Assembly: GCA_046154225.1 (NCBI GenBank)
Contig: JBJXEM010000006.1
Span: forward strand, 46,124 to 110,123
DNA length: 64,000 nucleotides
DNA from: Rickettsiales bacterium
Lineage (GTDB): Bacteria > Pseudomonadota > Alphaproteobacteria > Rickettsiales > UBA3002
Reading direction: 5' to 3'
The position numbers and the translations under genes were made by a program. The notes beneath the pieces are model-generated. The model was not told the DNA's origin. It did not search any database and saw only the letters and a list, made by a program, of their open reading frames with translations. This document shows, piece after piece, positions 1,809 to 61,808 of the stretch. Position 1 is the stretch's first letter; the number at the start of each line of letters is the position of its first letter.

Positions 1809-3031
1809 GCGCCGCCTGGCAGTGGCAGGATGCCGCCTGCTTTCAATCCTGCAGCGCCTCTACACAACAGCGCGCTGCGCAATGGTTGGCCGATGCGCCT
1901 GCACTGCAACAAAAGCTCGTGGCACTCGCCGCCGAACAGCCGCTACTTCACACCGCAAGCGACGCCACGATGCTGCAGCACATAGTGCAGCATGCGGCAC
2001 AACTGGCGCAGCATAGTCAACAACTGGTGGTGGTGGGTACGGGCGGTGCATCGCTCGGCGCGCAGGCGCTGTGTGCGCTTTCGGCCGACCCCACGCGCGT
2101 GCGGTTTTTGGAGAATTGCGACCCGGAAACGGTCGCACGTTTTATGCAACTGCCTTGCGAGCACACCGCGTGGTTGATCATCAGTAAATCCGGCGAAACG
2201 GTGGAAACACTGGCCGCCGCCCTCAGCCTCATTGGTACGCACGGGCCAGCGCTTGCTTCGCGCCTGATGGTCATTACCGCCAACTCGGACAGCACGTTGG
2301 GCCAGCTTGCGAAGCAACAACATTGGCCTATTCTGACGCACCCCGCACGGCTGGGCGGGCGGTTTTCGGTGTTCTCGGTGGTGGGGCTTTTGCCGTGTGC
2401 CTATGCGGGCCTCGACATCATGGCCATCGCGCAGGCGGCGCAAAAAATGCTGCAACAATTGTTGCAGCAACCGGACGTTACCTTATGGCGCCACGCCAGC
2501 TGGATTGCGGCCACCATGGCAGAAAAACCGCAGCAATTATTGATGGCCTATGCCGACCGCCTGCGCCCAGCGACGCAATGGTGGAAGCAGCTTTGGGCCG
2601 AAAGCCTGGGCAAACAGGGCCGTGGCCAGACGCCCATTACCGCCATCGGGTCGATCGACCAACATAGCCAACTCCAGCTCTATCTCGACGGCCCGCACGA
2701 CAAATTGGTAACGCTGTGGCTGCCCGATGCGGCTGGCCACGGCCCGATTCTGCCGACGATGACACTGCCCGGCCTGCACTATCTTGGTGGCCACACCATG
2801 GGCGACGTGATGCAGGCGACGGCCGAAGCCACAGTGAAAACCCTCACCGCCACTGGGGTGCCATTGCGCGTGTTGCGCGGCGAATTAAGCCCCGCCAGCA
2901 TGGCCGAGTGGATGGTAGCGCGCATGCTCGAAACCCTCGCCGTGTCGGTCCTCATCGCGGTCGACCCCTTTTCGCAGCCAGCGGTGGAGGAGGGCAAAAA
3001 GCTGGCACGCGCGGCCCTTGGTGCGGCGTGA
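1805..3031 (+). CDS. pgi: glucose-6-phosphate isomerase (short SIS-type PGI, 408 aa)
   Basis: PGI signatures ISKSGETVET and GGRFSVFSVVGLLP. ATG 1805 overlaps the upstream stop (ATGA). Confidence 0.75.
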   Translation: MSAAWQWQDAACFQSCSASTQQRAAQWLADAPALQQKLVALAAEQPLLHTASDATMLQHIVQHAAQLAQHSQQLVVVGTGGASLGAQALCALSADPTRVRFLENCDPETVARFMQLPCEHTAWLIISKSGETVETLAAALSLIGTHGPALASRLMVITANSDSTLGQLAKQQHWPILTHPARLGGRFSVFSVVGLLPCAYAGLDIMAIAQAAQKMLQQLLQQPDVTLWRHASWIAATMAEKPQQLLMAYADRLRPATQWWKQLWAESLGKQGRGQTPITAIGSIDQHSQLQLYLDGPHDKLVTLWLPDAAGHGPILPTMTLPGLHYLGGHTMGDVMQATAEATVKTLTATGVPLRVLRGELSPASMAEWMVARMLETLAVSVLIAVDPFSQPAVEEGKKLARAALGAA

Positions 3032-4845
3032 CCATTCGCCGCCTACCGCAAACGCTGGTGAACCAGATTGCCGCCGGGGAAGTGATTGAGCGCCCGGCCT
3101 CGGTGGTGAAAGAACTGGTCGAGAACGCGATTGATGCGGGCGCGACCGACCTCGACATCGCGCTCGAGCAAGGCGGCGTGACCCTCATCCGCGTGCGCGA
3201 TAATGGGCGCGGTATGGGGCCGGGCGAGCTGCCCCTCGCCATCGAGCGCCACGCCACCTCGAAACTGCCCGACGACGATTTACTGGCGATTCACCATCTC
3301 GGTTTTCGCGGCGAAGCGCTTCCTTCCATTGGCTCCGTCGCGCGCCTGACACTCAGTAGCCGCGCCCGTGGGGCCGCCGAGGCATGGAGCCTGAGCGTGG
3401 AAGGCGGCCACGTGCAGCCGCTGATGCCCACCGCCATGAGCGAAGGCACGCTGGTGGAAGTGCGCGATTTATTTTACGCGGTGCCGGCGCGGCTGAAATT
3501 TTTGAAATCGTCGCGCAGCGAAATCAATGCGGTCGTCGACATCATCGAGCGGCTCGCCATGGCTCACCCCGACATTCGCTTTCGCTTGAGCCACGATGGC
3601 CGCGCGTTGCGCGACTTTCCAGCCCTCACCCGCGATTTTTTAAGTGCGGGGCCCGAACGGCTGGAGAAAATCATCGGGCACGGATTCGCCGCCAATATCG
3701 CTAGCATCGACATGGAGCGCGAGGGCATTCGCCTGACGGGCTTTGCGGGCCTGCCCACGTTTCACCGCGCCACCTCGCAGTCGCAATATCTGTTCGTCAA
3801 CCGCCGCCCGGTGCGCGACCGGCTGCTGCTCGGCGTCATTCGCGCGGCCTATCAGGATTACCTCGCGCGCGACCGCCACCCCGTCGCCGTATTGTTTTTG
3901 GAAGTGCCGGGCGAGCAGGTGGATGTGAATGTCCACCCCGCTAAATCCGAAGTGCGGTTTCGCGATGCGAATGTGGTGCGCGGCCTGATGATCACCGCCC
4001 TGCGCCATGCCATTGGTGCCACCGCCCAGCGCGCGAGCACCACGGTGGCCGATGCGGCGCTGCAGGCGTTTCGCAGTGAGGGTTTAGGGTCTAGGGTTTG
4101 GGGTATAGAAAATGGCGTGCGGCCCCAAGTACTTTCCAATTCAACAACAGAATTTGCTGCACCGAATGCTGCATTGTGGCGTGGTGAACAATTGCCACCG
4201 CAGCATCGTTCTGCTGAGTCAAAATCATCGCACACTAACCCCTATACCCTAAACCCTAGCCCCTCATTCCCCCTCGGCGCTGCCGTCGCGCAGTTGCACC
4301 ACACCTACATTGTGGCACAAACCGCCGATGGGCTCGTCATCGTCGATCAACACGCGGCGCATGAACGGCTGATGTACGAGAAATTCAAGGCCGAACTGGC
4401 GGGCGAAGGAGTGCCGCGCCAAATGCTGCTGCTGCCTGAAGTGGTGGAGTTGAACGAGGCCGAAGCGCACCGCCTGCTTTCGCGGGCGGAGGAATGGGCG
4501 AAGCTGGGGCTGCTGCTGGAGCCATTCGGCGAGCGCACCGTGCTGGTGCGTGAAGTGCCCAGCATGTTTGGGGATGGCGACATTGCAGGGCTGGTGCGCG
4601 ACCTCGCCGAAGAAGTAAGCCTCTATGCCGAAGGCCTTGCGCTGGCCGATAAACTTGAAGCCATTTTAAGCCGCATGGCCTGCCATGGCAGCGTGCGCGC
4701 CGGGCGGGTCCTGAACCTCAACGAAATGAACGCCCTGCTGCGGCAGATGGAAGCGACGCCCTTCAGTGGCCAATGCAACCACGGACGGCCGACTTACGTT
4801 TCGCTCGCGAAGGCGGATGTCGAAAAGCTGTTTGGGCGGCGATGA
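3028..4845 (+). CDS. mutL: DNA mismatch repair protein MutL (605 aa) carrying a repeat-derived in-frame segment in the linker
   Basis: GHKL ATPase N-terminus (VNQIAAGEVIERPASVVKELVENAIDAG, DNGRGM). C-terminal endonuclease/dimerisation motifs (DQHAAHERLMYE, ACHGSVRAG). GTG 3028 overlaps the pgi stop (GTGA). The 2716 start in the track is frame read-through inside pgi. Confidence 0.9.
   Translation: MTIRRLPQTLVNQIAAGEVIERPASVVKELVENAIDAGATDLDIALEQGGVTLIRVRDNGRGMGPGELPLAIERHATSKLPDDDLLAIHHLGFRGEALPSIGSVARLTLSSRARGAAEAWSLSVEGGHVQPLMPTAMSEGTLVEVRDLFYAVPARLKFLKSSRSEINAVVDIIERLAMAHPDIRFRLSHDGRALRDFPALTRDFLSAGPERLEKIIGHGFAANIASIDMEREGIRLTGFAGLPTFHRATSQSQYLFVNRRPVRDRLLLGVIRAAYQDYLARDRHPVAVLFLEVPGEQVDVNVHPAKSEVRFRDANVVRGLMITALRHAIGATAQRASTTVADAALQAFRSEGLGSRVWGIENGVRPQVLSNSTTEFAAPNAALWRGEQLPPQHRSAESKSSHTNPYTLNPSPSFPLGAAVAQLHHTYIVAQTADGLVIVDQHAAHERLMYEKFKAELAGEGVPRQMLLLPEVVELNEAEAHRLLSRAEEWAKLGLLLEPFGERTVLVREVPSMFGDGDIAGLVRDLAEEVSLYAEGLALADKLEAILSRMACHGSVRAGRVLNLNEMNALLRQMEATPFSGQCNHGRPTYVSLAKADVEKLFGRR
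4080..4264. repeat. heptamer-array palindromic element (GGGTNTA units) located inside the mutL reading frame
   Basis: Left arm GGGTTTAGGGTCTAGGGTTTGGGGTATAG (4080-4108). Right arm TAACCCCTATACCCTAAACCCTAGCCCC (4236-4264), the inverse orientation of the same unit. Same arm type as the intergenic copy at 20128-20208. Boundaries are good to a few nt. Confidence 0.8.
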
Positions 4846-18954: not shown

Positions 18955-20121
18955 TCAACGCAGCACTTGTTCGATTAGGGCGTTGAGCAACAGGCTGCCG
19001 CGCGGGGTGGCACGCAGGCAATCGTTGGTTGCCTCCAGCAATCCCTCGTCCTGTAAGCGCTGCAGGCGACCATCGCGCCACAGGTTCTCAAGGTAAGCAC
19101 GTTCGTCGGCGCGTAAACGGCCGAGGGCGATGCCCTCGTGCAGCCGCAATCCCATCAGCACCGTTTCCTCGGCGCGTTCGGCGACGCTGAGGGGTGTTTC
19201 CTCCTCCAGCCCGTGGCCCATTCGCTCCACCTGCTCCAACCAACGCTCGGGCGATTTCAAGTTGCGGGTGGCCAGTCTTTGCGGGGGACCGAGTAAGCCC
19301 GAAGCAGGAACGTCTACCCGCCCATGCGCCCCGGGGCCGATGCCGAGATAGGCTTCGCTGCGCCAGTAGCAAAGGTTGTGCTGACTTTCGTGCCCGGCGC
19401 GTGCGTGGTTCGAAATTTCGTAGGCGGGCAGCCCCGCTTCTTCCATCACCCGTTGCGTTAACGCATAAAATTCGGCGGCGAGTTCTTCGCTGGGCAGGGT
19501 GAAGGCTTTGTCGACATGGTAGGCGTGGTGGAACGCCGTGTTTTCCTCGATGGTGAGCTGGTAAAGCGACAGATGGTCGCGCGCGAGCTTAAGGGCGGCG
19601 CGCAATTCCTGCTCCCAGCCCTCCAGCGTTTGGCCGGGAAGGGCGTAAATCAGGTCGAACGTGTAGCGCGGGAATATTTTTTGCGCGAGGGCAATGGCGG
19701 CGCGTGCTTCGTCGGCCGAATGTTCGCGGCCTAAAAACGCGAGTGCTTCAGGCCGCAGTGACTGGATACCGAGCGACAGGCGATTCACCTCCGCCGCACG
19801 CAACTGCACGAATTTTTCGGCTTCGACCGAAGTAGGATTGGCCTCGAGCGTGATTTCCATCGCTTCGTCGTGCGACCATAATTGCTGCGCGCGGGCGATG
19901 AGTGCGGCGGCGGTTTCGGGCGCCATCAGGCTCGGCGTGCCGCCGCCGAAAAACAAGCTGTTCAGCTGAAAATCCGGCACGCGGGCATGCCAGTATTCCA
20001 GCTCGCGCACCAGCGCCGCCCGCCAGCGTGCATGGTCGACCCCCTCGCGCACATGCGAGTTAAAATCGCAATACGGGCATTTCTTTTTGCAAAACGGCCA
20101 GTGGATGTAGAGGGCGCTCAT
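18955..20121 (-). CDS. hemW: radical SAM heme chaperone HemW (HemN-like)
   Basis: CKKKCPYCDF radical-SAM cluster motif near the N-terminus and a HemN_C-like tail. 388 aa. Confidence 0.85.
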   Translation of the reverse strand: MSALYIHWPFCKKKCPYCDFNSHVREGVDHARWRAALVRELEYWHARVPDFQLNSLFFGGGTPSLMAPETAAALIARAQQLWSHDEAMEITLEANPTSVEAEKFVQLRAAEVNRLSLGIQSLRPEALAFLGREHSADEARAAIALAQKIFPRYTFDLIYALPGQTLEGWEQELRAALKLARDHLSLYQLTIEENTAFHHAYHVDKAFTLPSEELAAEFYALTQRVMEEAGLPAYEISNHARAGHESQHNLCYWRSEAYLGIGPGAHGRVDVPASGLLGPPQRLATRNLKSPERWLEQVERMGHGLEEETPLSVAERAEETVLMGLRLHEGIALGRLRADERAYLENLWRDGRLQRLQDEGLLEATNDCLRATPRGSLLLNALIEQVLR

Positions 20122-20127
20122 GGGCAG

Positions 20128-20208
20128 TAGGGTATAGGGTTTAGGGTATAGGGTATAGAGAAGAAACGTAGCTTCCCCTAGACCCTAAACCCTAAACCCT
20201 ATACCCTG
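20128..20208. repeat. heptamer-array hairpin (TAGGGTA/TAGGGTT units) filling the hemW / ORF283 divergent intergenic region
   Basis: Left arm TAGGGTATAGGGTTTAGGGTATAGGGTATAG. About 19-nt loop. Right arm CTAGACCCTAAACCCTAAACCCTATACCCTG. Confidence 0.9.
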
Positions 20209-20214
20209 CGCAGC

Positions 20215-21066
20215 ATGATCGACCATCAAAGCCAGTCTGCCATCATCGAGCTGATGCACGCGAAATACGAAAGCTTGCTGGCCATTGAAGCCGTGTGGGG
20301 CATTCGCCTGCATGAAGGCGACATGCGCCCGCGCATCGAGCATTTTCACGACGCGGTACGGGCCCTCACCTCCGGTTCGGCGAGCCTGTACGATAAAGAC
20401 AGCCGCCTGTCGGTCGAGAACCTCGCCTATGATTTAAGCCAGCTGCGCGGCGTGGCCGATAGGCCGCTGGGCCACGTCAACCGCATCAACGAAAAATCCG
20501 TGGGCACCGCGATTGTGAAGCAGGGCGACGCAGGCGCCAGCGGCCCGCGCATGCCGCCCCAACCCGTGCGCCACCAGCTGGTGAGTGATTATCGCGACTA
20601 CACGGTGTTTTTTGCCGCGTTATTCGCGCAGGCGGCCGACCGCAATTTCCAGTCGCGCGTTGATGAAATCGACAGCGCCGTTTCCGACATCGGCCTCATC
20701 GAGCAGGTGGTGAAGCAGTTGATTGCCGGTAAACTCACCAACGCGCAGGCCAGCGAACAGCTCATGCATGTCGAGCGCGACGATTTACGCGAACGCCTCC
20801 AGACCATGCTCGCACGCAAAACCATGAGCGCGCGCGAAAAGCAGGAAGTGCTGGCGCTGGTTGCGCAAATCGAGCGCGGCATGGCGAAAGAAAAAAAGAG
20901 CCTCGAACAGGCACATCTCAGCTACGCTACCGGTCAACTCGCCGTGTACGAAGACGCGAAGGAAACCGTGAAGCGCCTAGCTGCCGCGGGGCTGAACCTA
21001 GCTGGCAAATTCGTCGAAAACGCAGTACAGGCGGCCCAAGGCCAAGGCAAAGCGCGAGGAATTTAA
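20215..21066 (+). CDS. hypothetical protein (283 aa, predicted helical)
   Basis: Long ORF with codon usage like its neighbours. I recognise no motif and see no signal peptide. Confidence 0.5.
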   Translation: MIDHQSQSAIIELMHAKYESLLAIEAVWGIRLHEGDMRPRIEHFHDAVRALTSGSASLYDKDSRLSVENLAYDLSQLRGVADRPLGHVNRINEKSVGTAIVKQGDAGASGPRMPPQPVRHQLVSDYRDYTVFFAALFAQAADRNFQSRVDEIDSAVSDIGLIEQVVKQLIAGKLTNAQASEQLMHVERDDLRERLQTMLARKTMSAREKQEVLALVAQIERGMAKEKKSLEQAHLSYATGQLAVYEDAKETVKRLAAAGLNLAGKFVENAVQAAQGQGKARGI

Positions 21067-21956: not shown

Positions 21957-21981
21957 ATATATGTACTCCGGTTTGGGTCAA

Positions 21982-22127
21982 CGTCATTGCGAGGCTTGCA
22001 CCTGCATTTCAACCTACTCAAAGATGAAAGGCCGAAGCAATCCAGCTGCTACGCGGCGTTGAAAATGGATTGCCACGGCCTTTCATCGCAGTGCAAGCGG
22101 AGGGCGTATGCATGCCTCGCAATGACG
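21982..22127. repeat. MITE-like nested palindromic element, 146 bp, CGTCATTGCGAGGC termini
   Basis: 14-bp terminal inverted repeats CGTCATTGCGAGGC / GCCTCGCAATGACG. Inner inverted repeat AAGCAATCCA...TGGATTGC. No ORF. Confidence 0.85.
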
Positions 22128-22183
22128 ATGTGGTGAGATTAGTACTTCCCCAGAAAGCTGCAAGTGCCATGTTCGCAAAATAC

Positions 22184-22741: not shown

Positions 22742-22753
22742 AGCGTTTTACTG

Positions 22754-22820
22754 TGAGTGGTGAGTGGTGGGTAGTGAGTGGTTCAGCGTCACTACTCACT
22801 ACCCACTACTCACCACTCAC
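22754..22820. repeat. heptamer-array hairpin (GTGAGTG/GTGGGTA units) between rluB and rsmD, overlapping the rluB stop
   Basis: Left arm GTGAGTGGTGAGTGGTGGGTAGTGAGTGG. Loop TTCAGCGTC. Right arm ACTACTCACTACCCACTACTCACCACTCAC. The last four codons and the stop of rluB (VSGE*) lie in the right arm. Confidence 0.9.
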
Positions 22821-24769: not shown

Positions 24770-24788
24770 GCCATCAGCTTAGCCGGAT

Positions 24789-24862
24789 CGTCATTCCAGC
24801 GAAAGCTGGAATCCAACTTTTTATTGGCGATGGAATGGATTCCAGCTTTCGCTGGAATGACG
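24789..24862. repeat. MITE-like palindromic element, 74 bp, GTCATTCCAGCGAAAGCTGGAATCC arms
   Basis: Perfect inverted arms CGTCATTCCAGCGAAAGCTGGAATCC / GGATTCCAGCTTTCGCTGGAATGACG. Each arm is itself a hairpin. Confidence 0.9.
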
Positions 24863-24886
24863 AGCGCGAAATGGGTATGCTCAAAT

Positions 24887-24910
24887 CACCACTCACCACT
24901 CACCACTCAC
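24887..24910. repeat. solo heptamer array (CACCACT units) 6 nt upstream of motA
   Basis: CACCACTCACCACTCACCACTCAC is the reverse complement of the GTGAGTG-type arm. There is no partner arm nearby. Confidence 0.8.
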
Positions 24911-24916
24911 GGTTCT

Positions 24917-35304: not shown

Positions 35305-36198
35305 ATGGCCGACATCAAAGAAAAACTTCGTGAAATAGGACATAGTGGTTTTGATAAAGAGCCGCACCCCGAATTCACCTTCGATAAATCATTGCTTTCG
35401 TCGCGCGACCCGTTAACGCAGGCCGAGATTGATTATGTGAATATGCAGGTAGGCGATGCTGTCAGAAAACTGGCGGTTGAATATGGCTGCGAGCCCCAAG
35501 ATGCAGACAAGATCGAAGCGCGTTACTGGTATAGCAAAAAGGGACACGGGTTTTTCGGAAACGATCACGTCTGGGGCATCTTTTACGATCGCGACCAAAG
35601 CAATTTTGATGAGAAGCAGCTCGATGAACCGGTGCCGTACGCGATCAAAGATTTCATGCGTGAATTCGAACGCGCCATGGGCGAAGTCAATTTCAATAAA
35701 GGTAATACCACGCCTCTTGCAGAGGGCGGTCGTCGCGCCGTTGGCTTTTCACAACATGGATGGCACGGCAATTATGCTTTTATGCGCGGCGACTCACGCG
35801 ATGTGCTTCTACCCATGGTAAGGTTAATTCAGCAGTTTGATCCCGAGTTCACGATCCGTTTCGATGTGCCCGAGCAATATACCTCTTGCTACGACGGGAT
35901 CAGCGAAAAAGACCTGTCGGGCATGGCAAACGCGCATGCCTCCGTGTTCTGGATCGACCGCGAATGGGCGCAGGGCGAATTAGACAGACGTGCGCAGGGC
36001 GAGCGTTGGCGAATCATGCAAGAGCGTATCGACCATAGTCGGGTTGAAGCACAGGTGCTCGGTAAACCACAGCCCTTACTCACGCGCTTGAAAATAGCAC
36101 TGTCTAGCAAACATGTGAACACGGTCGACCCCGAAATGCCGTATGGGGGGGCAGAACCGCTGAACCCTACCGCTTGCGGAACGCTTCGAGGGAGATAA
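35305..36198 (+). CDS. hypothetical protein, 297 aa, AT-richer ORFan
   Basis: ATG is preceded by GAAGG and an AT-rich 115-bp upstream region. The gene is visibly lower in GC than the flanks. It contains QYTSCYDGISEKD, reminiscent of the CYD motif in the upstream ORF. Confidence 0.55.
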   Translation: MADIKEKLREIGHSGFDKEPHPEFTFDKSLLSSRDPLTQAEIDYVNMQVGDAVRKLAVEYGCEPQDADKIEARYWYSKKGHGFFGNDHVWGIFYDRDQSNFDEKQLDEPVPYAIKDFMREFERAMGEVNFNKGNTTPLAEGGRRAVGFSQHGWHGNYAFMRGDSRDVLLPMVRLIQQFDPEFTIRFDVPEQYTSCYDGISEKDLSGMANAHASVFWIDREWAQGELDRRAQGERWRIMQERIDHSRVEAQVLGKPQPLLTRLKIALSSKHVNTVDPEMPYGGAEPLNPTACGTLRGR

Positions 36199-36730: not shown

Positions 36731-36750
36731 GGGCTTCTTATACAGTGGTT

Positions 36751-36774
36751 AGAGTCGAGAGTCGAGAGTCGAGT
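36751..36774. repeat. tandem heptamer array (AGAGTCG x3) between ssrA and sspB
   Basis: AGAGTCGAGAGTCGAGAGTCGAG read directly from the sequence. Confidence 0.85.
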
Positions 36775-36784
36775 GAAATTAACT

Positions 36785-37260
36785 AAAGTGTTTCAAGTGC
36801 CACCCGGGAGGCGACCGCCGACCCGCGAAAAATCATCCTACGCTAAAGCTACGGACGACGCTCCTTCGCCTAAGGCCGCCTTCGACCGGCGTAAGCCGTC
36901 CGAAGCCGGAGGCGAAGGGCGGTGGGGGGATTCTGTTGCCCAGCTCCCCCCGGGCTGCGTTTACGAGCTAGAGCTCGTCAAGCCACACTAAGCGGCGAGA
37001 CGGGCTGCTACGACGTTGTTGTCGTTAGCTGCAACGAGTGCTACGTTGTCGTTGGCACTTGAAAAGTGATCCGATTATGGGAGATCACCCCAAGCAAAAG
37101 CAGCGCCTTTATTGCGGTTGTCGATGCTAATTCACCCCCACAAAGCCACCGCGTTGCGGTGGCTTTGTGGAGGTGCCGGGCTCTGCCCCCGGGTCCAATC
37201 CGACTATTCCACGATACGTTTATTGCTATAGCCACTTGCGTGACAGTTCTAAATATAAGG
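36785..37260 (-). ncRNA. ssrA: tmRNA (ssrA), circularly permuted two-piece gene: acceptor piece - spacer hairpin - coding piece
   Basis: On the minus strand, ...GGAC-CCGGG-GGCAGAG-CCCGG-CACCUCC-A ends at 37168. A 27-nt hairpin follows at 37141-37167. GGGGGUGAAUUAGCAUCGAC starts at 37139. GGGGGUG pairs with CACCUCC and gives a G3:U pair. The tag frame 37056-36988 reads ANDNVALVAANDNNVVAARLAA*. The outer ends are approximate. Confidence 0.8.
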
Positions 37261-37382
37261 CAAAACGGCCGCGGGTTCAAGCCGCAACTGCGGTCAAAAA
37301 TCGACAATCCGACACGCAACCTTCACGCAACCGTCATCAAACTGTCACATCTGTTTGGTAGGGTGAAGGCTAGGAGAAACCC

Positions 37383-39869
37383 ATGGTCACTAAACCAGCT
37401 ACTACTATCCCACTAACGGACGCAGCACGTTATGCTTCGGCACTGGCCCAGTTGGGGCGTCCGCTTAGCCAAACGGAAGTGGCGCTGTTGAACCCGCAAA
37501 CCGGCAAGCTTGAAGTGGCGGATCTGAACGGGATTGCTTCTGCTCGCTTAGGCCAGTTGCGCACATTGCTACCCGCAGGCTATCAGGAGCAGTCGCGCCA
37601 GATTTCCCAGCTGCTCGAGAATTTCCAATCGACTTCGACCATTGAATTGCCCAATGGCCTAACATGGGAGGCAATCTTCGGTGCGGTTGGGTCTTACGTC
37701 AAAAAACCGGCAGGCGAAGCCTACACGCAGGCAGAAAAATTCATTGACGAGAATAAAGATAAAATCGAATTTTTGCGCGCGGCGGTTTCAGCCGGAACCA
37801 GCCTAAAAAACGGGGCCAGCAATACCGAAGCATTCTTTGCCAGCTGGAACAACGGCGCGAATGCGTCACAGAATTTTTTTGGGATTGGCCGTCAGCTCGA
37901 TATCATTAAATCCACCATCGGTGCGCGCAAGCTAACCAAGGCACAATGCGATGCTGTCGCCGACACAATTGCGCTTGCCACCTACCAGTCGGTGCAAAGT
38001 AACGGCACCGCATCGGCCGCCCTTGCCGTGTCGCCGGGCGACGCAAAGCCTAATTTTATCGATAACGTATGGTCGCTCGGCCAACGGCTGGGATCGCTTT
38101 TGGTGCATGCGCTGCCCGCTGAATGGGGCCAGTATGTACTGCAATGGGCGAACTACGCCTATGGCGGCTTTAAAGATTGGGATGCGGCAGGCGTCGCAGC
38201 GAAACAGGCCTTGGCGAACGAACCGCAGGCCGTAAGTTGGGATACGCTTGCCAAACAAAGTGCGCAAGAACGCGTGCGCAAAGCACAGCTCAGCGCCACC
38301 ACTCAAGGCCGTGCGGATGCGGCGGAAATGCTTGCCGGAGTGTCGTCAGTTGAAGGTGTTACGAATGTACCCGGCATTGCCAAGCTGGTAGCGGAAGGTG
38401 GGCCGTTCCGTGGCGCGCCCGAGAAAGACGCTAACGGCAAAACGGTTCAAAAACTCTACCTCGCACGCTATGTGAATGGCACGTTGCAAAAAGACCCGAT
38501 TCTGGTGACGGGCCCGGATGGGAAACAACGGCAAATGACCGTGGCCGATGAACAGACCCAGGCCAGTGCCAATATGGCGCCTGTGCTCGATCGCGGCGTG
38601 ACCCTCTTGAATTTGGCAAGCTACGCGGGCGGGGCAACGACGGATGCGGCGCTGACCTATGGCGGTGCCGCCCTGGCCATGACGACAGGTTACGGTATGC
38701 AGGAGGGCTTCCTGCGCCAGACACTGGGCGGCCATGCTGCGGCAGGACGTTCCGATCATCTTTATAACGGCAAATTAAAGCTCGGCAGCCAACACGCGTT
38801 GGAAGAAAAAGCCGAAGCCGCGACGAAGCGCGCCGATGCATTGAAAAACGGCGCACGTCGCTGGCCCTGGGAGCGTACGGAAGCGCAATACCGCGAACAG
38901 GCCGATGAGTTCACAAAGAAAGCCGCAAAAATTGAGGTTCGCAGTGACCATCAGCTGAAAGTGGCGATTGAGCGCAACGATCGATTCATCGACCCCAAAA
39001 CGAGCTTCAGCCCACTGAATGCGCACGCTGAAGAGTCACTCATCAAGGGCAGCAGCTGGTTCGAAAAAGCCCGTAGCGCCGTGTGGAATTCGCCGCGCAT
39101 CGTGGGCCGCTGGATGGGCGACGGGGCTGGAAAAGTTACCGATTTCGTAGCGTACCGCTCTGCGCAAGCGGGTCGCTTTGCAGTGGGCCTCGTTGAGAAA
39201 TTACCCGGTGGCGAAAAAGCGACCGAAGCCGTGGCTTGGGGAGTTAGCAAAGTTGCACCAGCACTGGTGCCTGTAGCCGAAGTAGGGGGGCGTCTGGTTG
39301 CGCCGGTTGGGGCTGCCGTTGGCGTGGGTCAGGCCGGCTACGATGTTTACCACGGCGTCAGCACCGGTGAGAAACACCACACCATTAAAGGTGTCGCGAG
39401 CTTCGGTACGATCGGTGCATCGGCCATGGCCGGTTTCTGGATGGGGGCAGGCGGCGGGACGCTCGTGCTGCCTGTAATTGGCACGATTGGCGGCGGTGTG
39501 GTGGGCGCAATTGGCGGCGCAGCGACCGGGGCACTTGCTGCCTGGGGCGGCGGCATGGTCTATGATAAACTTGATGTTGGCTACCAGATGCGTGAAGCGG
39601 AGCGGAACGCACGCACGGCGGAAATGCTGGCCAAGCGTGAGAAGCTGGCGGCCGACCCGGGCATTGCGATTGCCGTGAGCGATGTCGATGCTAAAACCCA
39701 GGCAGCACAGGCGCAGGCAAAATTGGCCGCCGCAAAAGTGCACACCACAGGTCTTGGTTCGATGACCAGCGTTGAAAATTTGATGATGTTAAATCCCGTA
39801 ACATTGCCGTTTGTTGCGGCCTCGAAAATGGCGGCGGGCATCACATCTTTCTTCACCGGAAAAGCCTAA
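37383..39869 (+). CDS. hypothetical protein, 828 aa, with C-terminal glycine-zipper membrane-insertion-like region
   Basis: ATG is preceded by TAGGAGA. No signal peptide. Residues around 640-720 form Gly/Ala-rich hydrophobic helices (GASAMAGFWMGAGGGTLVLPVIGTIGGGVVGAIGGAATGALAAWGGG). Confidence 0.6.
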   Translation: MVTKPATTIPLTDAARYASALAQLGRPLSQTEVALLNPQTGKLEVADLNGIASARLGQLRTLLPAGYQEQSRQISQLLENFQSTSTIELPNGLTWEAIFGAVGSYVKKPAGEAYTQAEKFIDENKDKIEFLRAAVSAGTSLKNGASNTEAFFASWNNGANASQNFFGIGRQLDIIKSTIGARKLTKAQCDAVADTIALATYQSVQSNGTASAALAVSPGDAKPNFIDNVWSLGQRLGSLLVHALPAEWGQYVLQWANYAYGGFKDWDAAGVAAKQALANEPQAVSWDTLAKQSAQERVRKAQLSATTQGRADAAEMLAGVSSVEGVTNVPGIAKLVAEGGPFRGAPEKDANGKTVQKLYLARYVNGTLQKDPILVTGPDGKQRQMTVADEQTQASANMAPVLDRGVTLLNLASYAGGATTDAALTYGGAALAMTTGYGMQEGFLRQTLGGHAAAGRSDHLYNGKLKLGSQHALEEKAEAATKRADALKNGARRWPWERTEAQYREQADEFTKKAAKIEVRSDHQLKVAIERNDRFIDPKTSFSPLNAHAEESLIKGSSWFEKARSAVWNSPRIVGRWMGDGAGKVTDFVAYRSAQAGRFAVGLVEKLPGGEKATEAVAWGVSKVAPALVPVAEVGGRLVAPVGAAVGVGQAGYDVYHGVSTGEKHHTIKGVASFGTIGASAMAGFWMGAGGGTLVLPVIGTIGGGVVGAIGGAATGALAAWGGGMVYDKLDVGYQMREAERNARTAEMLAKREKLAADPGIAIAVSDVDAKTQAAQAQAKLAAAKVHTTGLGSMTSVENLMMLNPVTLPFVAASKMAAGITSFFTGKA

Positions 39870-41699: not shown

Positions 41700-41778
41700 C
41701 GTCATTCCAGCGAAAGCTGGAATCTATCGGCTTTTAAAAGTTGGATTCCAGCGCGCGCGGAGCTTGGCTGAAATGACG
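41700..41778. repeat. MITE-like palindromic element (GTCATTCCAGCGAAAGCTGGAAT family), right arm degenerated
   Basis: The left arm is identical to the copy at 24789. The right arm GGATTCCAGCGCGCGCGGAGCTTGGCTGAAATGACG is partly decayed. Confidence 0.8.
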
Positions 41779-43925: not shown

Positions 43926-43985
43926 TGGCGAGGTCTTCTTGCACGTAGGATGAAGCGATTTAATACAGGCTTAAACCTTAAATTT

Positions 43986-44050
43986 GTCATTCCCGCGAAG
44001 GCGGGAATCCACTTTTTTCTTTAGGAGATTCCCGCCTTCGCGGGAATGAC
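43986..44050. repeat. MITE-like palindromic element, 65 bp, GTCATTCCCGCGAAGGCGGGAATCC arms
   Basis: GTCATTCCCGCGAAGGCGGGAATCC ... GATTCCCGCCTTCGCGGGAATGAC. Each arm is a hairpin. Confidence 0.9.
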
Positions 44051-44092
44051 AACATGGATAGGTTGCTGCCAACAGAATAGACAGGGGGAATT

Positions 44093-47347: not shown

Positions 47348-47384
47348 GCGGCGTTCCTCTGCTCTATGAGTGGCAGGAGATTAT

Positions 47385-49319
47385 ATGGGTACTGAACCAT
47401 CAACAGAAATGCCAAGCGGCGAAGATTACGATGCCGTGCAACAATCGCTGCAAAAAGCTTTCAAAGTGGCCGATGAAAGCTTTGCTAAGCATTTTGCCGA
47501 CTGGTGGTCGGCGATGGGTACGGATGCGATGAATAAACAATTAAGTGGCGAGATCGATATTCCGGACTCGCGCTTTTCGCGCCGTCGTCTGGTCAACGCC
47601 CTCGGTGAAAGCCGTAAGCGACTGGAAGCGCGAATGCAAAAAGTCAGCAATCAGAATGCTTTTATCGAAGAATGCTACGATTCGATTGAAGCGGAAATGG
47701 AAGAGCTGTTTTTTGTCACGAATAACCGTGCCGAAGCCAAAATGGTGCAGGATTATTTTTTACGCTTCCTGGCAGCAGCCTCGGGTGAGCTCGAATTATC
47801 CGGCCACATGGAAAAAGAAGTGGCGGAGTATTGTCAGGCATTCAAGGAATATTACGATATTGGTTTTGAGTCGTACGACGACCTGCGTGAGATTGTGCAT
47901 GAAGTAAGCGGCGGCACCACTCACAGCATCGTTGCGCTGGCGATGTCTCAGCACGCATCGGATGAATCTTCCAAACGTGGGATCAGTAAACTGCCCAAGC
48001 TCTCGGAGCAGTCGCAACCCGCCCGGGATATGATCAAAGCCATGACCGTTCCTGCCTATAATGCGCTGCTGGCGAGCGAATATGGGCTCAGCTACGAACC
48101 TAACCAAGTATTTCACTACAGCACTCCTTGGATTTGTTATCAGGCGCGTGAACTTTCAGGGGCACAGTATGAACTTAATCTGCCGCGCCGTTTCAGCCGA
48201 TCGCAGCAGCAAACCAATGCGATTGAAGGGGTGAAACTCGAGCGTGAATTGATGCGTCATGTCAGCGAATTGATTGCCAAAGAAGGAAACATATTCGGGC
48301 TGATTGATGCGTCCGTCATGTTTAATCATAAACGGGCCGAAGCCAATCAGGTACCGGAAGGGTTTCCGGACATGCTGCACGAAGCCTGTGCCCGGGCCGA
48401 ACATATTGCGGCCGAGCAATTCAAAGAAATCTACAACAGTCATATTCAACGATGGGCCAGCCTGCCCGCCGCGAAAAGCCGCGAGCTTGGCAAAAACGCC
48501 TGGCCGCTGCTTGACACCTGGGACATGGATAACGGCGTCGCCAGAGATATCGGCCACTACCTGACGGAGGCCGTGATCAATGCCTCGTCGCCGTTGCGCG
48601 TGGCGCGTCGCGCCGAACAAATAGTGGATGAAATGGCCGCCGATGTCATGCTCGGCTGCGTCAGCCCGGTACAATTTCGCTATGCCGAACAATATCTGAA
48701 AACCCTGCGGCGCGAACTGGGGTCGCAACTGCACGATGTTGGTCAGTTCCAGGCAGAAGCGTTTGCGCCGTTACGTCAGTTAGAAGAAAAATGCCGTTAT
48801 GCCTATGAGAGTGCAGAAGTGCTGCGCGAATGGGTACTTGACAGTACCGACCATAAATTCGACCGTCTGATGCAGGAACAATATTTGAAGCATGCGTTGA
48901 AAACCGGGCAGGCAATCCACCAGCTTAACCCGAATGAATGGGCCGACACCATCATGCCGAAAACGGCAAAATCATATCGGAAGTTGCTCAAAAATTCTGG
49001 GTTTTACCAGCGCGGCAAGGACCATGTGCTGCTACCCGTCATTGTGCGGCATGCGCGTCGGGTGGTCGATGCTGAGCTGGGGGCGGCACCTACATCTGAG
49101 GCAGGGGCTTCGAATGAGGAAATTACCGATTTTGAAACACGCTACTGGGAGCGCACGCGGGCATTAGTACAGGAAGCGCTCTCTGCCATGCCAGACCGTG
49201 ATGCGCTGACGGGAAACAGTCATCGTCGCTATCCTTTTAGTGCCGAGGATATGCATGAAGCCATCACCGACCTTGATGGCAAAGCAGCGCTGTTGACGCA
49301 TCGCGGTACGCGTCATTAA
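47385..49319 (+). CDS. hypothetical protein, 644 aa, AT-richer ORFan
   Basis: ATG 47385 is preceded by AGGAG. Acidic, predicted helical, no signal peptide and no motif I recognise. Confidence 0.55.
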   Translation: MGTEPSTEMPSGEDYDAVQQSLQKAFKVADESFAKHFADWWSAMGTDAMNKQLSGEIDIPDSRFSRRRLVNALGESRKRLEARMQKVSNQNAFIEECYDSIEAEMEELFFVTNNRAEAKMVQDYFLRFLAAASGELELSGHMEKEVAEYCQAFKEYYDIGFESYDDLREIVHEVSGGTTHSIVALAMSQHASDESSKRGISKLPKLSEQSQPARDMIKAMTVPAYNALLASEYGLSYEPNQVFHYSTPWICYQARELSGAQYELNLPRRFSRSQQQTNAIEGVKLERELMRHVSELIAKEGNIFGLIDASVMFNHKRAEANQVPEGFPDMLHEACARAEHIAAEQFKEIYNSHIQRWASLPAAKSRELGKNAWPLLDTWDMDNGVARDIGHYLTEAVINASSPLRVARRAEQIVDEMAADVMLGCVSPVQFRYAEQYLKTLRRELGSQLHDVGQFQAEAFAPLRQLEEKCRYAYESAEVLREWVLDSTDHKFDRLMQEQYLKHALKTGQAIHQLNPNEWADTIMPKTAKSYRKLLKNSGFYQRGKDHVLLPVIVRHARRVVDAELGAAPTSEAGASNEEITDFETRYWERTRALVQEALSAMPDRDALTGNSHRRYPFSAEDMHEAITDLDGKAALLTHRGTRH

Positions 49320-52015: not shown

Positions 52016-52699
52016 TTAAAGATTCCACGAAGCGCCGATGCCGAGCACTGGTCTTTCGAGGCTGCTGTTTTGAATCATGACGGGGTGGAAATGCACCTGG
52101 TATTGGTCGTAATCGCTGATCGGCCCACGCGGGGCGCTCCAAAACTGGATTTCGCCGATGACGAAGCCCGAGATGCCGGTCACCAGCGCGTCGTTCGTGC
52201 GGCCGATTTGTGAGATGACAATGCCCGATACAGCATTGAACCCAGCATTCGCCAAATGCGGCACGAGTTCATAAGGTTCGTGCGCGCGCTCGGCACTGTC
52301 GCGAAGTAACGACTCTTTGCGGTTGAGGCATTGCGCCGGACTGTCGAGGTCGCTGCATACCGTGTCGGCGTTGAAAGCGGGCAGGGGACGGAAAATCACA
52401 TCGCCGACACCGACTAGGCTTTGCACGGCGTTCACAATGTTGCCGTTGCGTTTTTTGGCGTCATTCTCGCCCACAGACAGCGCGGTGGTGTAAATGAGGG
52501 CGGCGCCGTTAAAGCTACCCCAGCCATATTGCCAGTAATCGGCCTGCTTTTTTTGTTCGTTTAGCAGACGGGTGGTTTCGAAATAACGCGTGTCGAATTG
52601 TGGGCCGTTCACGCCTACTTTGGCCGAAGGTTCGGCCTGCGCTGAAACGGCGAAGCTGATGACAAGCGCCATGTGTAAAACGAGCTGGCGTAGATGCAT
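52016..52699 (-). CDS. hypothetical secreted protein, 227 aa
   Basis: ATG 52699 is preceded by GGAGA. Signal peptide MHLRQLVLHMALVISFAVSAQA. No recognisable family. Confidence 0.5.
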   Translation of the reverse strand: MHLRQLVLHMALVISFAVSAQAEPSAKVGVNGPQFDTRYFETTRLLNEQKKQADYWQYGWGSFNGAALIYTTALSVGENDAKKRNGNIVNAVQSLVGVGDVIFRPLPAFNADTVCSDLDSPAQCLNRKESLLRDSAERAHEPYELVPHLANAGFNAVSGIVISQIGRTNDALVTGISGFVIGEIQFWSAPRGPISDYDQYQVHFHPVMIQNSSLERPVLGIGASWNL

Positions 52700-52871
52700 A
52701 CGGTATCTCCAAAGTTGTCCTGATCCGAGCGATCGATGCAGGCAAGGGCATAAAATTTCGAGGTAGAAAATACGACAATTCACATTTTTGTCCAGTTTTT
52801 ACGTACAGTCAGCCCCTAAATGCCGCAGTATTGGGCTTGTAACGGGCCCGCAGCTGCGTTAAAACGCGCGC

Positions 52872-59703: not shown

Positions 59704-60843
<1,140 letters not shown>

Positions 60844-60888
60844 TGTAATTCTTCTTGAGCTTGTCTCAAGCAGTGCCATAGTCGCGCC

Positions 60889-61716: not shown

Positions 61717-61720
61717 GACA

Positions 61721-61808
61721 GGATTCAGCATTCAGCATTCAGCATTCAGCACGAAGCCGCGCGAGCCTATTCTTGAGCCCTCAATCCCGAATCCCAAATC
61801 CCGAATCC
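61721..61808. repeat. paired heptamer arrays (ATTCAGC x4 and AATCCCG/AATCCCA x4) between mreC and mreD
   Basis: GGATTCAGCATTCAGCATTCAGCATTCAGC ... CAATCCCGAATCCCAAATCCCGAATCC. The arms are only about 60% complementary and share a GATTC core. The element ends 2 nt before the mreD ATG. Confidence 0.85.

Follow-up and report, generated by a model that had tools for sequence, protein, structure and literature searches.

A lineage-specific heptamer-array palindrome fills the divergent hemW spacer of an uncultured alphaproteobacterium

The spacer between a HemW-like gene and a divergently transcribed gene for a 283-aa protein, in a 64-kb stretch of DNA (hereafter the window) from an uncultured alphaproteobacterium, is filled by a palindrome made of two inverted arrays of a seven-nucleotide unit. 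The element adds a new unit and a new host clade to an already known class of heptameric simple sequence repeat (SSR) palindromes that lacks an explained function. It is neither a telomere relic nor a dedicated G-quadruplex switch. The explanation that we prefer, and to which we give a probability of roughly 70%, is a lineage-specific pair of inverted heptamer arrays of the Xanthomonas GGGAATC class, with an origin in slippage and template switching and a stem-loop in the untranslated regions (UTRs) as its consequence.

The spacer measures exactly 93 bp (20122-20214) between the ORFs at 18955..20121 (minus strand) and 20215..21066 (plus strand); calling genes independently on Logan contig L048, which is identical, reproduced the gap. 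We call the minus-strand ORF HemW-like because it contains Radical_SAM and HemN_C domains; the 283-aa product had no Pfam match. The palindrome is imperfect and takes up about 80 of the 93 bp, with arms of roughly 4.5 copies each of GGGTWTA and TAWACCC. Its parts and neighbors are as follows, with the strand given for the genes:

18955..20121, minus strand: HemW-like radical-SAM gene; ATG 6 nt from the left arm; lacks the N-terminal extension of relatives
20122..20214: whole divergent spacer, from the sequence, the ORF table and a second gene call
20128..20158: left arm, G-rich on the plus strand, reading TAGGGTA TAGGGTT TAGGGTA TAGGGTA TAG, with (G3N4)4 at 20130-20153
20159..20175: loop of 17 nt with a small inner stem, GAAG...CTTC
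20176..20207: right arm, C-rich on the plus strand and G-rich on the minus strand, reading CCCTAGA CCCTAAA CCCTAAA CCCTATA CCC
20215..21066, plus strand: conserved hypothetical gene, 283 aa; ATG 7 nt from the right arm; no Shine-Dalgarno sequence

Tandem Repeats Finder described the arms as 4.4 copies of TAGGGTA (20128-20158) and 4.6 copies of CCCTAAA (20176-20207). They pair over 26 nt with 92% complementarity, and over 47 nt with 81% when the pairing is carried through both CATG start-codon tetranucleotides. Each flanking gene has the C-rich arm on its own sense strand, 6 and 7 nt from the respective ATG. The pattern GGGTWTAGGGTWTAGGG, with up to two mismatches, has 11 matches in the window versus 0.02 expected. 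The hairpin ranks first among 24 inverted repeats of the window; predicted RNA folds of its two strands are -59.9 and -57.6 kcal/mol (z = -10.6 and -8.2) and predicted DNA folds -33.7 and -29.4 kcal/mol. An earlier note on this DNA had described a hairpin that fills the gap, with a second arm that is the matching C-rich strand. Both the coordinates and the folds agree with that description, which amounts to a very stable, cruciform-capable palindrome next to both start codons.

Since the hairpin is identical in L048 (0 mismatches over 3674 nt) and an orthologous hairpin occurs in a separate ENA assembly (L052), an assembly artifact is ruled out. Sigma-70 promoter and intrinsic-terminator scans of 19800-20550 found nothing within the element, the sole promoter-like consensus match in that interval lying inside hemW (19854-19882). 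The hairpin was also rejected as an intrinsic terminator, as it contains no terminator-like site and stands upstream of both genes. At the gathering threshold, an Rfam search of the window reported nothing at the hairpin and only a tmRNA, which is permuted and of the alpha type. HemW is at most 68% identical to proteins of metagenome-assembled genomes (MAGs) labelled Rickettsiales, Alphaproteobacteria or "Azospirillum", and the window's MutL has an exact match in an NCBI MAG protein annotated "Rickettsiales bacterium".

The spacer element belongs to a family. A periodicity scan of the window gave 16 period-7 runs, compared to 0-2 for periods 5, 6, 8, and 9. Tandem Repeats Finder and direct reading placed heptanucleotide tandem arrays at seven loci in the 64 kb, with at least five different units:

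4079..4108: A, left array of the GGGTTTA type; encodes EGLGSRVWG in the mutL reading frame, within the linker
4235..4264: A, right array of the CCCTAAA type; encodes NPYTLNPSP in the mutL reading frame, within the linker
20128-20207: B, GGGTWTA hairpin in the spacer between hemW and the 283-aa gene
22753..22820: C, GTGAGTG/CACTCAC hairpin between an rsuA-like gene and rsmD (both on the minus strand); the rsuA-like stop codon is inside an arm
24882..24912: D, (TCACCAC)n array without a partner arm, C-rich in the sense orientation, whose end is about 4 nt from the motA ATG downstream of it
36749..36776: E, (AGAGTCG)n array without a partner arm, 18 nt ahead of the sspB start and pyrimidine-rich on the sense strand of that gene
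60774..60843: F, hairpin of GTGGGTG/CCACCAC units in the mreB-mreC gap; its first unit contains the mreB stop codon
61719..61808: G, (CAGCATT)n and (AATCCCG)n arrays that fill the mreC-mreD gap

Hairpins B, C, F, and G have no common consensus, each locus having its own unit; the family is defined by the 7-nt period and not by sequence. All intergenic copies overlap a start or stop codon or stand within 18 nt of one, and the gaps that they occupy are largely filled. Heptamer hairpins make up four of the best five inverted repeats of the window. The arms of G are each homogeneous inside and differ from each other at the same two positions per unit. All window hairpins, together with those of L052 and two further loci described below (L009 and L083), have the same polarity, a 5′ G-rich arm followed by a C-rich arm at the 3′ side, on both strands, a pattern based on about eight independent cases. 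This constancy probably reflects selection against G-rich sequence directly upstream of starts, or against unpaired C-rich RNA after stops. The window also contains palindromes of the CGTC-type REP family (CGTCATTCC...), which are separate from the heptamer hairpins.

The closest known counterparts are the GGGAATC repeats of Xanthomonas, which number about 185 per genome, favor about four units, and form 70-75 convergent pairs (Rehm et al., 2015, PMC4692102). These intergenic repeats are found no more than 50 bp from either end of an ORF: ahead of an ORF the G-rich strand is the antisense strand, and past a stop codon it is the sense strand. They vary extensively between close species, and their seven-nucleotide period has been the subject of a polymerase-footprint conjecture cited by the same authors (PMC4692102). 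The spacer element resembles these repeats and the GGGGAYT repeats of Nostoc in its tandem 7-nt units, present in 4.4 and 4.6 copies where about four are preferred, and in its convergent pair of a G arm and a C arm able to form a stem-loop. It likewise adjoins ORFs, in front of which its G-rich strand is antisense, and the same gene pairs vary in sequence and length among close relatives. One G tract per unit, a further likeness, is found in the spacer element and in arrays A and G but not in the rest of the window family. The differences are of several kinds. The unit is GGGTWTA rather than GGGAATC or GGGGAYT, which makes it a new unit without excluding it from the class; the window uses several unrelated units, some of which have no G tract; the spacer copy stands between divergent ORFs, a position under-represented in Xanthomonas; and the host is an uncultured alphaproteobacterium.

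Cyanobacterial STRR sequences comprise several heptamer units per genome, arranged in tandem in non-coding DNA and even within an RNA gene. To our knowledge, they are mostly direct arrays and are confined to heterocystous cyanobacteria. The presence of multiple heptamer units per genome is shared with the window, whereas the inverted pairs and the units themselves set the window apart. REP and BIME sequences are extragenic palindromes tagged with GTAG or CGTC and linked to RAYTs, and within operons they can stabilize upstream mRNA. Like them, the heptamer hairpins are abundant, imperfect intergenic palindromes that fill gaps, also inside operons; however, REPs share a consensus and a tetranucleotide head, while the heptamer hairpins share only period and polarity.

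Two other systems place heptamers at the 5′ ends of genes. In Haemophilus influenzae hmw1A, the (ATCTTTC)n heptamer SSR is one arm of a long 5′-UTR hairpin that is cleaved by RNase III, and both the hairpin structure and RNase III influence expression and changes in repeat number (PMC12721329). The spacer element, whose transcript is only predicted, similarly puts a heptamer array into a long hairpin directly upstream of a gene; hmw1A differs in having a single SSR arm with at least ten units at a phase-variable adhesin locus. The TAACTGA repeats of Beggiatoaceae and cyanobacteria, which belong to unrelated phyla, form runs of two to six units that end a few nucleotides before start codons (PMC4679880). 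They too are heptamer arrays adjoining start codons, but consist of one conserved unit, nearly always in direct orientation, that is neither G- nor C-rich.

A metagenome scan for GGGTWTA hairpins, which covered one polarity only (the opposite polarity being CCCTAWACCCTAWACCC-N-GGGTWTAGGGTWTAGGG), gave at least 120 matches. Most were low-GC (TTTAGGG)n palindromes with few long ORFs; these are not homologs of the spacer element and are probably eukaryotic telomeric sequences or assembly palindromes. Only coding-dense contigs with a GC content of about 0.6 were taken as comparable. One of these, L083, contains eight period-7 arrays, including three hairpins with the units GGTTTTC, GGGTTTA, and TGAGTTC, two of which begin 0-2 nt past a stop codon and end 11-12 nt ahead of the next start. 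Another, L117, assigned to Hydrogenedentota via its TrpRS, has a GGGTATA/GGGTTTA hairpin between co-directional genes as well as further arrays. Several heptamer hairpins of differing kinds are present on each of these two bacterial contigs. The copies that we checked (L083 6137-6227 and 7026-7088; L117 7422-7498) are at or near stop and start codons. BLASTP of the ORFs of contigs of this type against those of the window and the alphaproteobacterial loci found no shared genes.

Relatives of the window organism provide a series of states for the spacer itself. At 72-76% identity the element is missing and the two start codons are 11-23 nt apart: the gap is 23 nt in L053 (76%) and 11 nt in L056 (72%), where it reads cat-AAGGAGCAACT-atg and includes an AAGGAG Shine-Dalgarno sequence before the 283-aa gene. 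Most relatives that we read have an N-terminal HemW extension (M-x-x-A-[IS]-T-Q...). In this lineage the element stands in place of the extension and of the L056-type AAGGAG. The 20.8 kb of L056 that are syntenic with the window contain no period-7 arrays, and its rsuA and rsmD genes overlap. Other, more distant relatives that we examined mostly have no hairpin. The exception is L009 (64%), which has a hairpin with GTGAGTG arms at the orthologous junction, flanking about 105 nt that are apparently translated as the HemW N terminus; we read it as an independent origin at the same junction.

Closer to the window, L052 (91%) has kept the hairpin with the same architecture, including periodic mismatches, and folds at -59 and -62 kcal/mol. 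Its outer units are GGGTATC GGGTTTC GGGTTTC on one side and three copies of GATACCC on the other. The same substitution is present in about six units across both arms and is compensatory. Units change in concert both within arms and between them. The window loop may be inverted relative to that of L052, although the signal in a flip-flop test is weak (score 2 versus -1, shuffle p ~0.009) and the loop itself is quasi-palindromic.

A contig from a sibling sample, L050, shows a different kind of change. From the ATG onward it has only four mismatches in 1229 nt (the 852-nt coding sequence and its downstream flank), an identity of 99.7%. Upstream of the ATG it differs from the first base on and carries a (GTGACAG/GTGACGG)n array, a unit (GTGACRG) with no copy in the window or any other locus that we compared. 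In the same sample, hairpin F and its flanks, located via mreB, are unchanged. Exact-protein look-ups of mreC, mreD, and motA for further strain alleles returned no record.

Lineage-specific presence with empty sites in relatives, a different array at the same site in a near-identical strain, and an independent hairpin at the orthologous L009 site could all be expected of a non-autonomous mobile element, similar to a MITE, a REP, or a Rickettsia palindromic element (RPE), placed at junctions by a transposase or RAYT-type enzyme. The genome also has CGTC-type REP palindromes, and GTAG at 20125-20128 heads the left arm. However, target-site duplications are absent at B, C, and F; the CATG on either side of B represents the two start codons, a pair that is not duplicated in L052; and the copies have no common terminal or internal sequence. 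None of the 20 window ORFs that we examined encodes a transposase or RAYT, and one encodes a small GIY-YIG protein. We rejected a MITE for the lack of target-site duplication at B, C, F, and L052, and also because the element replaces ancestral sequence instead of adding to it.

The arrays in mutL bear on the same question. Both are in-frame, in the disordered linker between the Pfam domains DNA_mis_repair and MutL_C, and the 126-nt interior between them encodes FAAPNAALWRGEQLPPQHRS, a motif that is also conserved in relatives without arrays. In relatives at 77-80% identity the arrays have been kept and whole units have drifted (GGGGTTA/CCCCTAT). As the interior is a conserved, native MutL linker motif, we rejected a MITE for this element too, and likewise the insertion of a whole RPE-like sequence, since the arrays are in-frame as in such elements, yet what they enclose is native. 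Arms that enclose native coding sequence in this way argue against a mobile element carrying cargo. Overall, we consider a mobile element unlikely.

The palindrome was instead most likely made by slippage and template switching. Arrays would expand and homogenize through slipped-strand mispairing of the 7-nt units, and the complementary arm would be made, and kept matched, by intramolecular template switching. The mutL arrays and the arms of G, uniform within but different from each other, show patterns consistent with these two processes. Template switching is an established mutational mechanism at quasipalindromes, where it is known as quasipalindrome correction. With such a mechanism, compensatory change needs no selection for structure, and the arms can flank native coding sequence, as they do in the mutL linker. 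Slippage and template switching cover the gradual, concerted change, but the wholesale exchange of the unit in the strain of 99.7% identity is not accounted for by them alone and may call for recombination or re-insertion.

The G-rich arm had suggested to the earlier note that the element alternates between duplex, cruciform or hairpin, and G-quadruplex (G4) or i-motif states. Its observation of four G3 tracts with 4-nt loops is accurate: (G3N4)4 is present on both strands, as GGGTATAGGGTTTAGGGTATAGGG at 20130-20153, which includes one TTTAGGG unit, and as its counterpart on the other strand, GGGTATAGGGTTTAGGGTTTAGGGTCTAGGGG. A switch of this kind would have G arms that form three-tetrad quadruplexes and C arms that form i-motifs, in alternation with duplex or cruciform, and would control both genes. 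Canonical (G3N1-7)4 motifs are found on both strands here and also in arrays A and G, and L052 retains its G3 tracts. The predicted energies speak against it. The ViennaRNA G-quadruplex model gives -8.4 and -10.5 kcal/mol for the isolated G arms, whereas with quadruplexes allowed the minimum-energy fold of the full element is still the hairpin (-59.9 and -57.6 kcal/mol), and on a single strand the quadruplex should lose to the hairpin. C3 tracts, moreover, make only weak i-motifs at neutral pH. Among the copies, the four-tract motif was restricted to A, B, and a single arm of G. Four G3 tracts are lacking in arrays C, D, E, and F, in the spacer allele of L050, and in the L009 hairpin. Although Xanthomonas and Nostoc heptamer oligonucleotides give quadruplexes and i-motifs in vitro, with four units preferred, Rehm et al. 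found no regulatory role (PMC4692102). Taken together, a G4/i-motif switch is very improbable.

The likeness to plant telomeres, also pointed out in the earlier note, holds insofar as TTTAGGG is present in the arm, but it is coincidental, L052 reading TTTCGGG/TATCGGG where the window has TTTAGGG/TATAGGG. We rejected a telomere repeat, as the sequence, which lies between two bacterial genes, has only one or two exact TTTAGGG units among TATAGGG and TCTAGGG ones. Since most family members and the L050 allele cannot form a three-tetrad quadruplex, and since TTTAGGG becomes TTTCGGG in the ortholog, the telomere and G4 look is incidental to one unit type. Heptamer arrays can mislead G4 or telomere scans of metagenomes.

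The earlier note further took the element to leave no room for ordinary divergent promoters. This argument fails, because relatives without the element have starts only 11-23 nt apart and promoters outside the spacer are therefore the ancestral condition. With the promoters of the two window genes presumably also beyond the spacer, as in relatives, both divergent mRNAs probably carry the whole stem-loop, with a predicted ~35 bp, about -58 to -60 kcal/mol, and the AUG within the closing CAUG/CAUG pairs. With the AUG paired in a full hairpin in both 5′ UTRs, strong inhibition of translation would be expected, although both hemW and its neighbor are conserved genes. By analogy with H. influenzae hmw1A (PMC12721329), a duplex of ~35 bp would be an RNase III-type substrate. 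Were it cleaved, or were transcription to start in the loop, each gene would have a C-rich leader that is unstructured and has no Shine-Dalgarno sequence; the C arm alone has predicted folds of only -2.6 and -2.2 kcal/mol. That the element affects expression of both genes, as the earlier note supposed, is plausible.

An element of this kind could also be a selected RNA structure, a processing or stability hairpin or a translational gate, in which selection and not a mutational mechanism keeps the pairing. The stem-preserving compensatory changes in L052 fit this explanation, as do the hairpins that separate cistrons of mreBCD, or the rsuA-like gene from rsmD, at points where it would be useful for mRNA segments to differ in stability. 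The heptamer hairpin of hmw, processed by RNase III, provides a precedent. However, the sense strand has no consistent advantage: C is more stable in antisense (-60.7 versus -53.3 kcal/mol in sense), and G folds in antisense only (-44.5 versus -18.6 kcal/mol). Furthermore, the single-arm arrays D and E make no hairpin, a different array allele is present in a strain that co-occurs and is nearly identical (99.7% over the aligned 1.2 kb), and close relatives manage without the element. The pairing is explicable without selection for RNA structure, and such selection is not consistently visible, C and G being favored in antisense. We therefore regard a selected RNA element as doubtful.

The regular 7-nt spacing and the preference for about four units would also suit a binding-site array for a protein that reads heptamer direct repeats, such as a regulator or a cold-shock-type single-strand binder; CspB, discussed in PMC4679880, binds one heptamer per protein. 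Because loci, and even alleles of one locus, have entirely different units, no single sequence-specific protein could read all arrays, and we find such an array hardly credible.

Our findings move attention from the telomere and G4 look of one spacer to polarity-fixed, period-7 palindromes that colonize junctions in several bacterial phyla. To what is known of the class, the window adds arrays that are tolerated in-frame in MutL and arrays that stand where L056 has a Shine-Dalgarno sequence. A practical consequence is that heptamer arrays break short-read assemblies, as in the case of contig L050, whose end falls within such an array. The most interesting residue is the allele swap at 99.7% identity, together with the invariant polarity and the 7-nt period across phyla. 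A bolder reading, which we consider improbable, combines the fixed period, the roughly four units, and the invariant polarity with the wholesale rewriting of arms between 99.7%-identical strains and the replacement of ribosome-binding sites and protein termini. Under it, heptamer palindromes would be actively generated, hypervariable junction fillers across Alphaproteobacteria, Hydrogenedentota, Xanthomonas, and cyanobacteria, produced by an unrecognized templated DNA turnover and not by passive slippage; if true, this turnover could require transcription or RNase III, for which hmw gives a hint. The hemW junction offers a natural series at a single locus, consisting of an empty site, an ortholog in which compensatory changes occurred in concert, and a near-identical strain with the allele swapped, which makes it useful material on how long SSR palindromes arise and whether expression is tuned by them.

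From the ATG of the 283-aa gene onwards, the window and L050, a contig from the sibling sample SRR28962027, differ at 4 positions over 1229 nt, a level of identity that marks the two strains as near-identical in sequence. Directly 5′ of this shared ATG, L050 (1-40, compared with window 20175-20214) carries a wholly different array, (GTGACAG/GTGACGG)n, within which the contig ends. The orthologous hemW junction of a 64% relative (L009, 2827-3006) contains an independent GTGAGTG/CCACTCA hairpin. As the L009 hemW ORF has no canonical start codon other than those at the end of the hairpin's G arm, the hairpin interior and the C arm seem to be translated. In a 91% relative that keeps the window's hairpin (L052, 200-215), hemW has a 4-nt deletion (ttgcaaaacagtgg, compared with ttgcaaaacggccagtgg in the window). 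Since the coverage of this contig is only 2x, the deletion is probably an assembly error and not the mark of a pseudogene.

Further features of the window
4079-4264: two complementary GGGTTTA-type heptamer arrays inside mutL (true CDS about 3028-4845)
21979-22130: further palindrome cluster
24788-24863, 41704-41723 and 43984-44052: CGTC-headed REP-like palindromes
35305-36198: ORF of 297 aa, no Pfam match
36747-37284, minus strand: permuted (two-piece) alpha-type tmRNA
37383-39869: ORF of 828 aa, no Pfam match
47370-49319: ORF of 649 aa, no Pfam match
52016-52783: ORF of 255 aa, no Pfam match
60852-60872: second small stem-loop, CTTGAGCTTGTCTCAAG, immediately 3′ of the mreB/mreC hairpin (F) and 5′ of mreC

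Both mutL arrays read in-frame, lie in the MutL interdomain linker and enclose the conserved motif FAAPNAALWRGEQLPPQHRS. Relatives at 77-80% identity (L059) keep these arrays, with units that have drifted.

The arms of the mreC/mreD arrays (61719-61808) differ at two positions of each unit (AGCATTC versus GGGATTC). With the help of G-U pairs they form a good stem in minus-strand RNA only (-44.5 versus -18.6 kcal/mol), the strand opposite to that of mreC and mreD, which are plus-strand genes. The small stem-loop 5′ of mreC has no U tract. The tmRNA encodes the tag peptide EGASSVALA; its ARAGORN call covers heptamer array E (36749-36776), while the Rfam match begins only at 36921.

The REP-like palindromes (CGTCATTCC[A/C]GCGAAAGC...GGAATG) form a family separate from the heptamer hairpins and are arranged as perfect inverted pairs, resembling BIMEs. 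The further palindrome cluster lies within the 227-bp gap before rsmD. In three of the four sizeable ORFs that Pfam left without a match, GC3 is below that of most neighbouring ORFs (0.56-0.61).

Several heptamer hairpins and arrays with differing units also occur in two unrelated, coding-dense JGI metagenome contigs (L083, 4385-11550; L117, 5737-7498), placed at or close to start and stop codons of genes that run in the same direction. Judged by its TrpRS, L117 is from Hydrogenedentota. Many other contigs matched in the metagenome scan (within L062-L141) are low in GC, have few long ORFs and carry palindromes of the head-to-head form (GGGTTTA)n...(TAAACCC)n. These are probably derived from eukaryotic telomeres or are assembly palindromes, and they present a pitfall for scans of metagenomes for telomere or G4 motifs.
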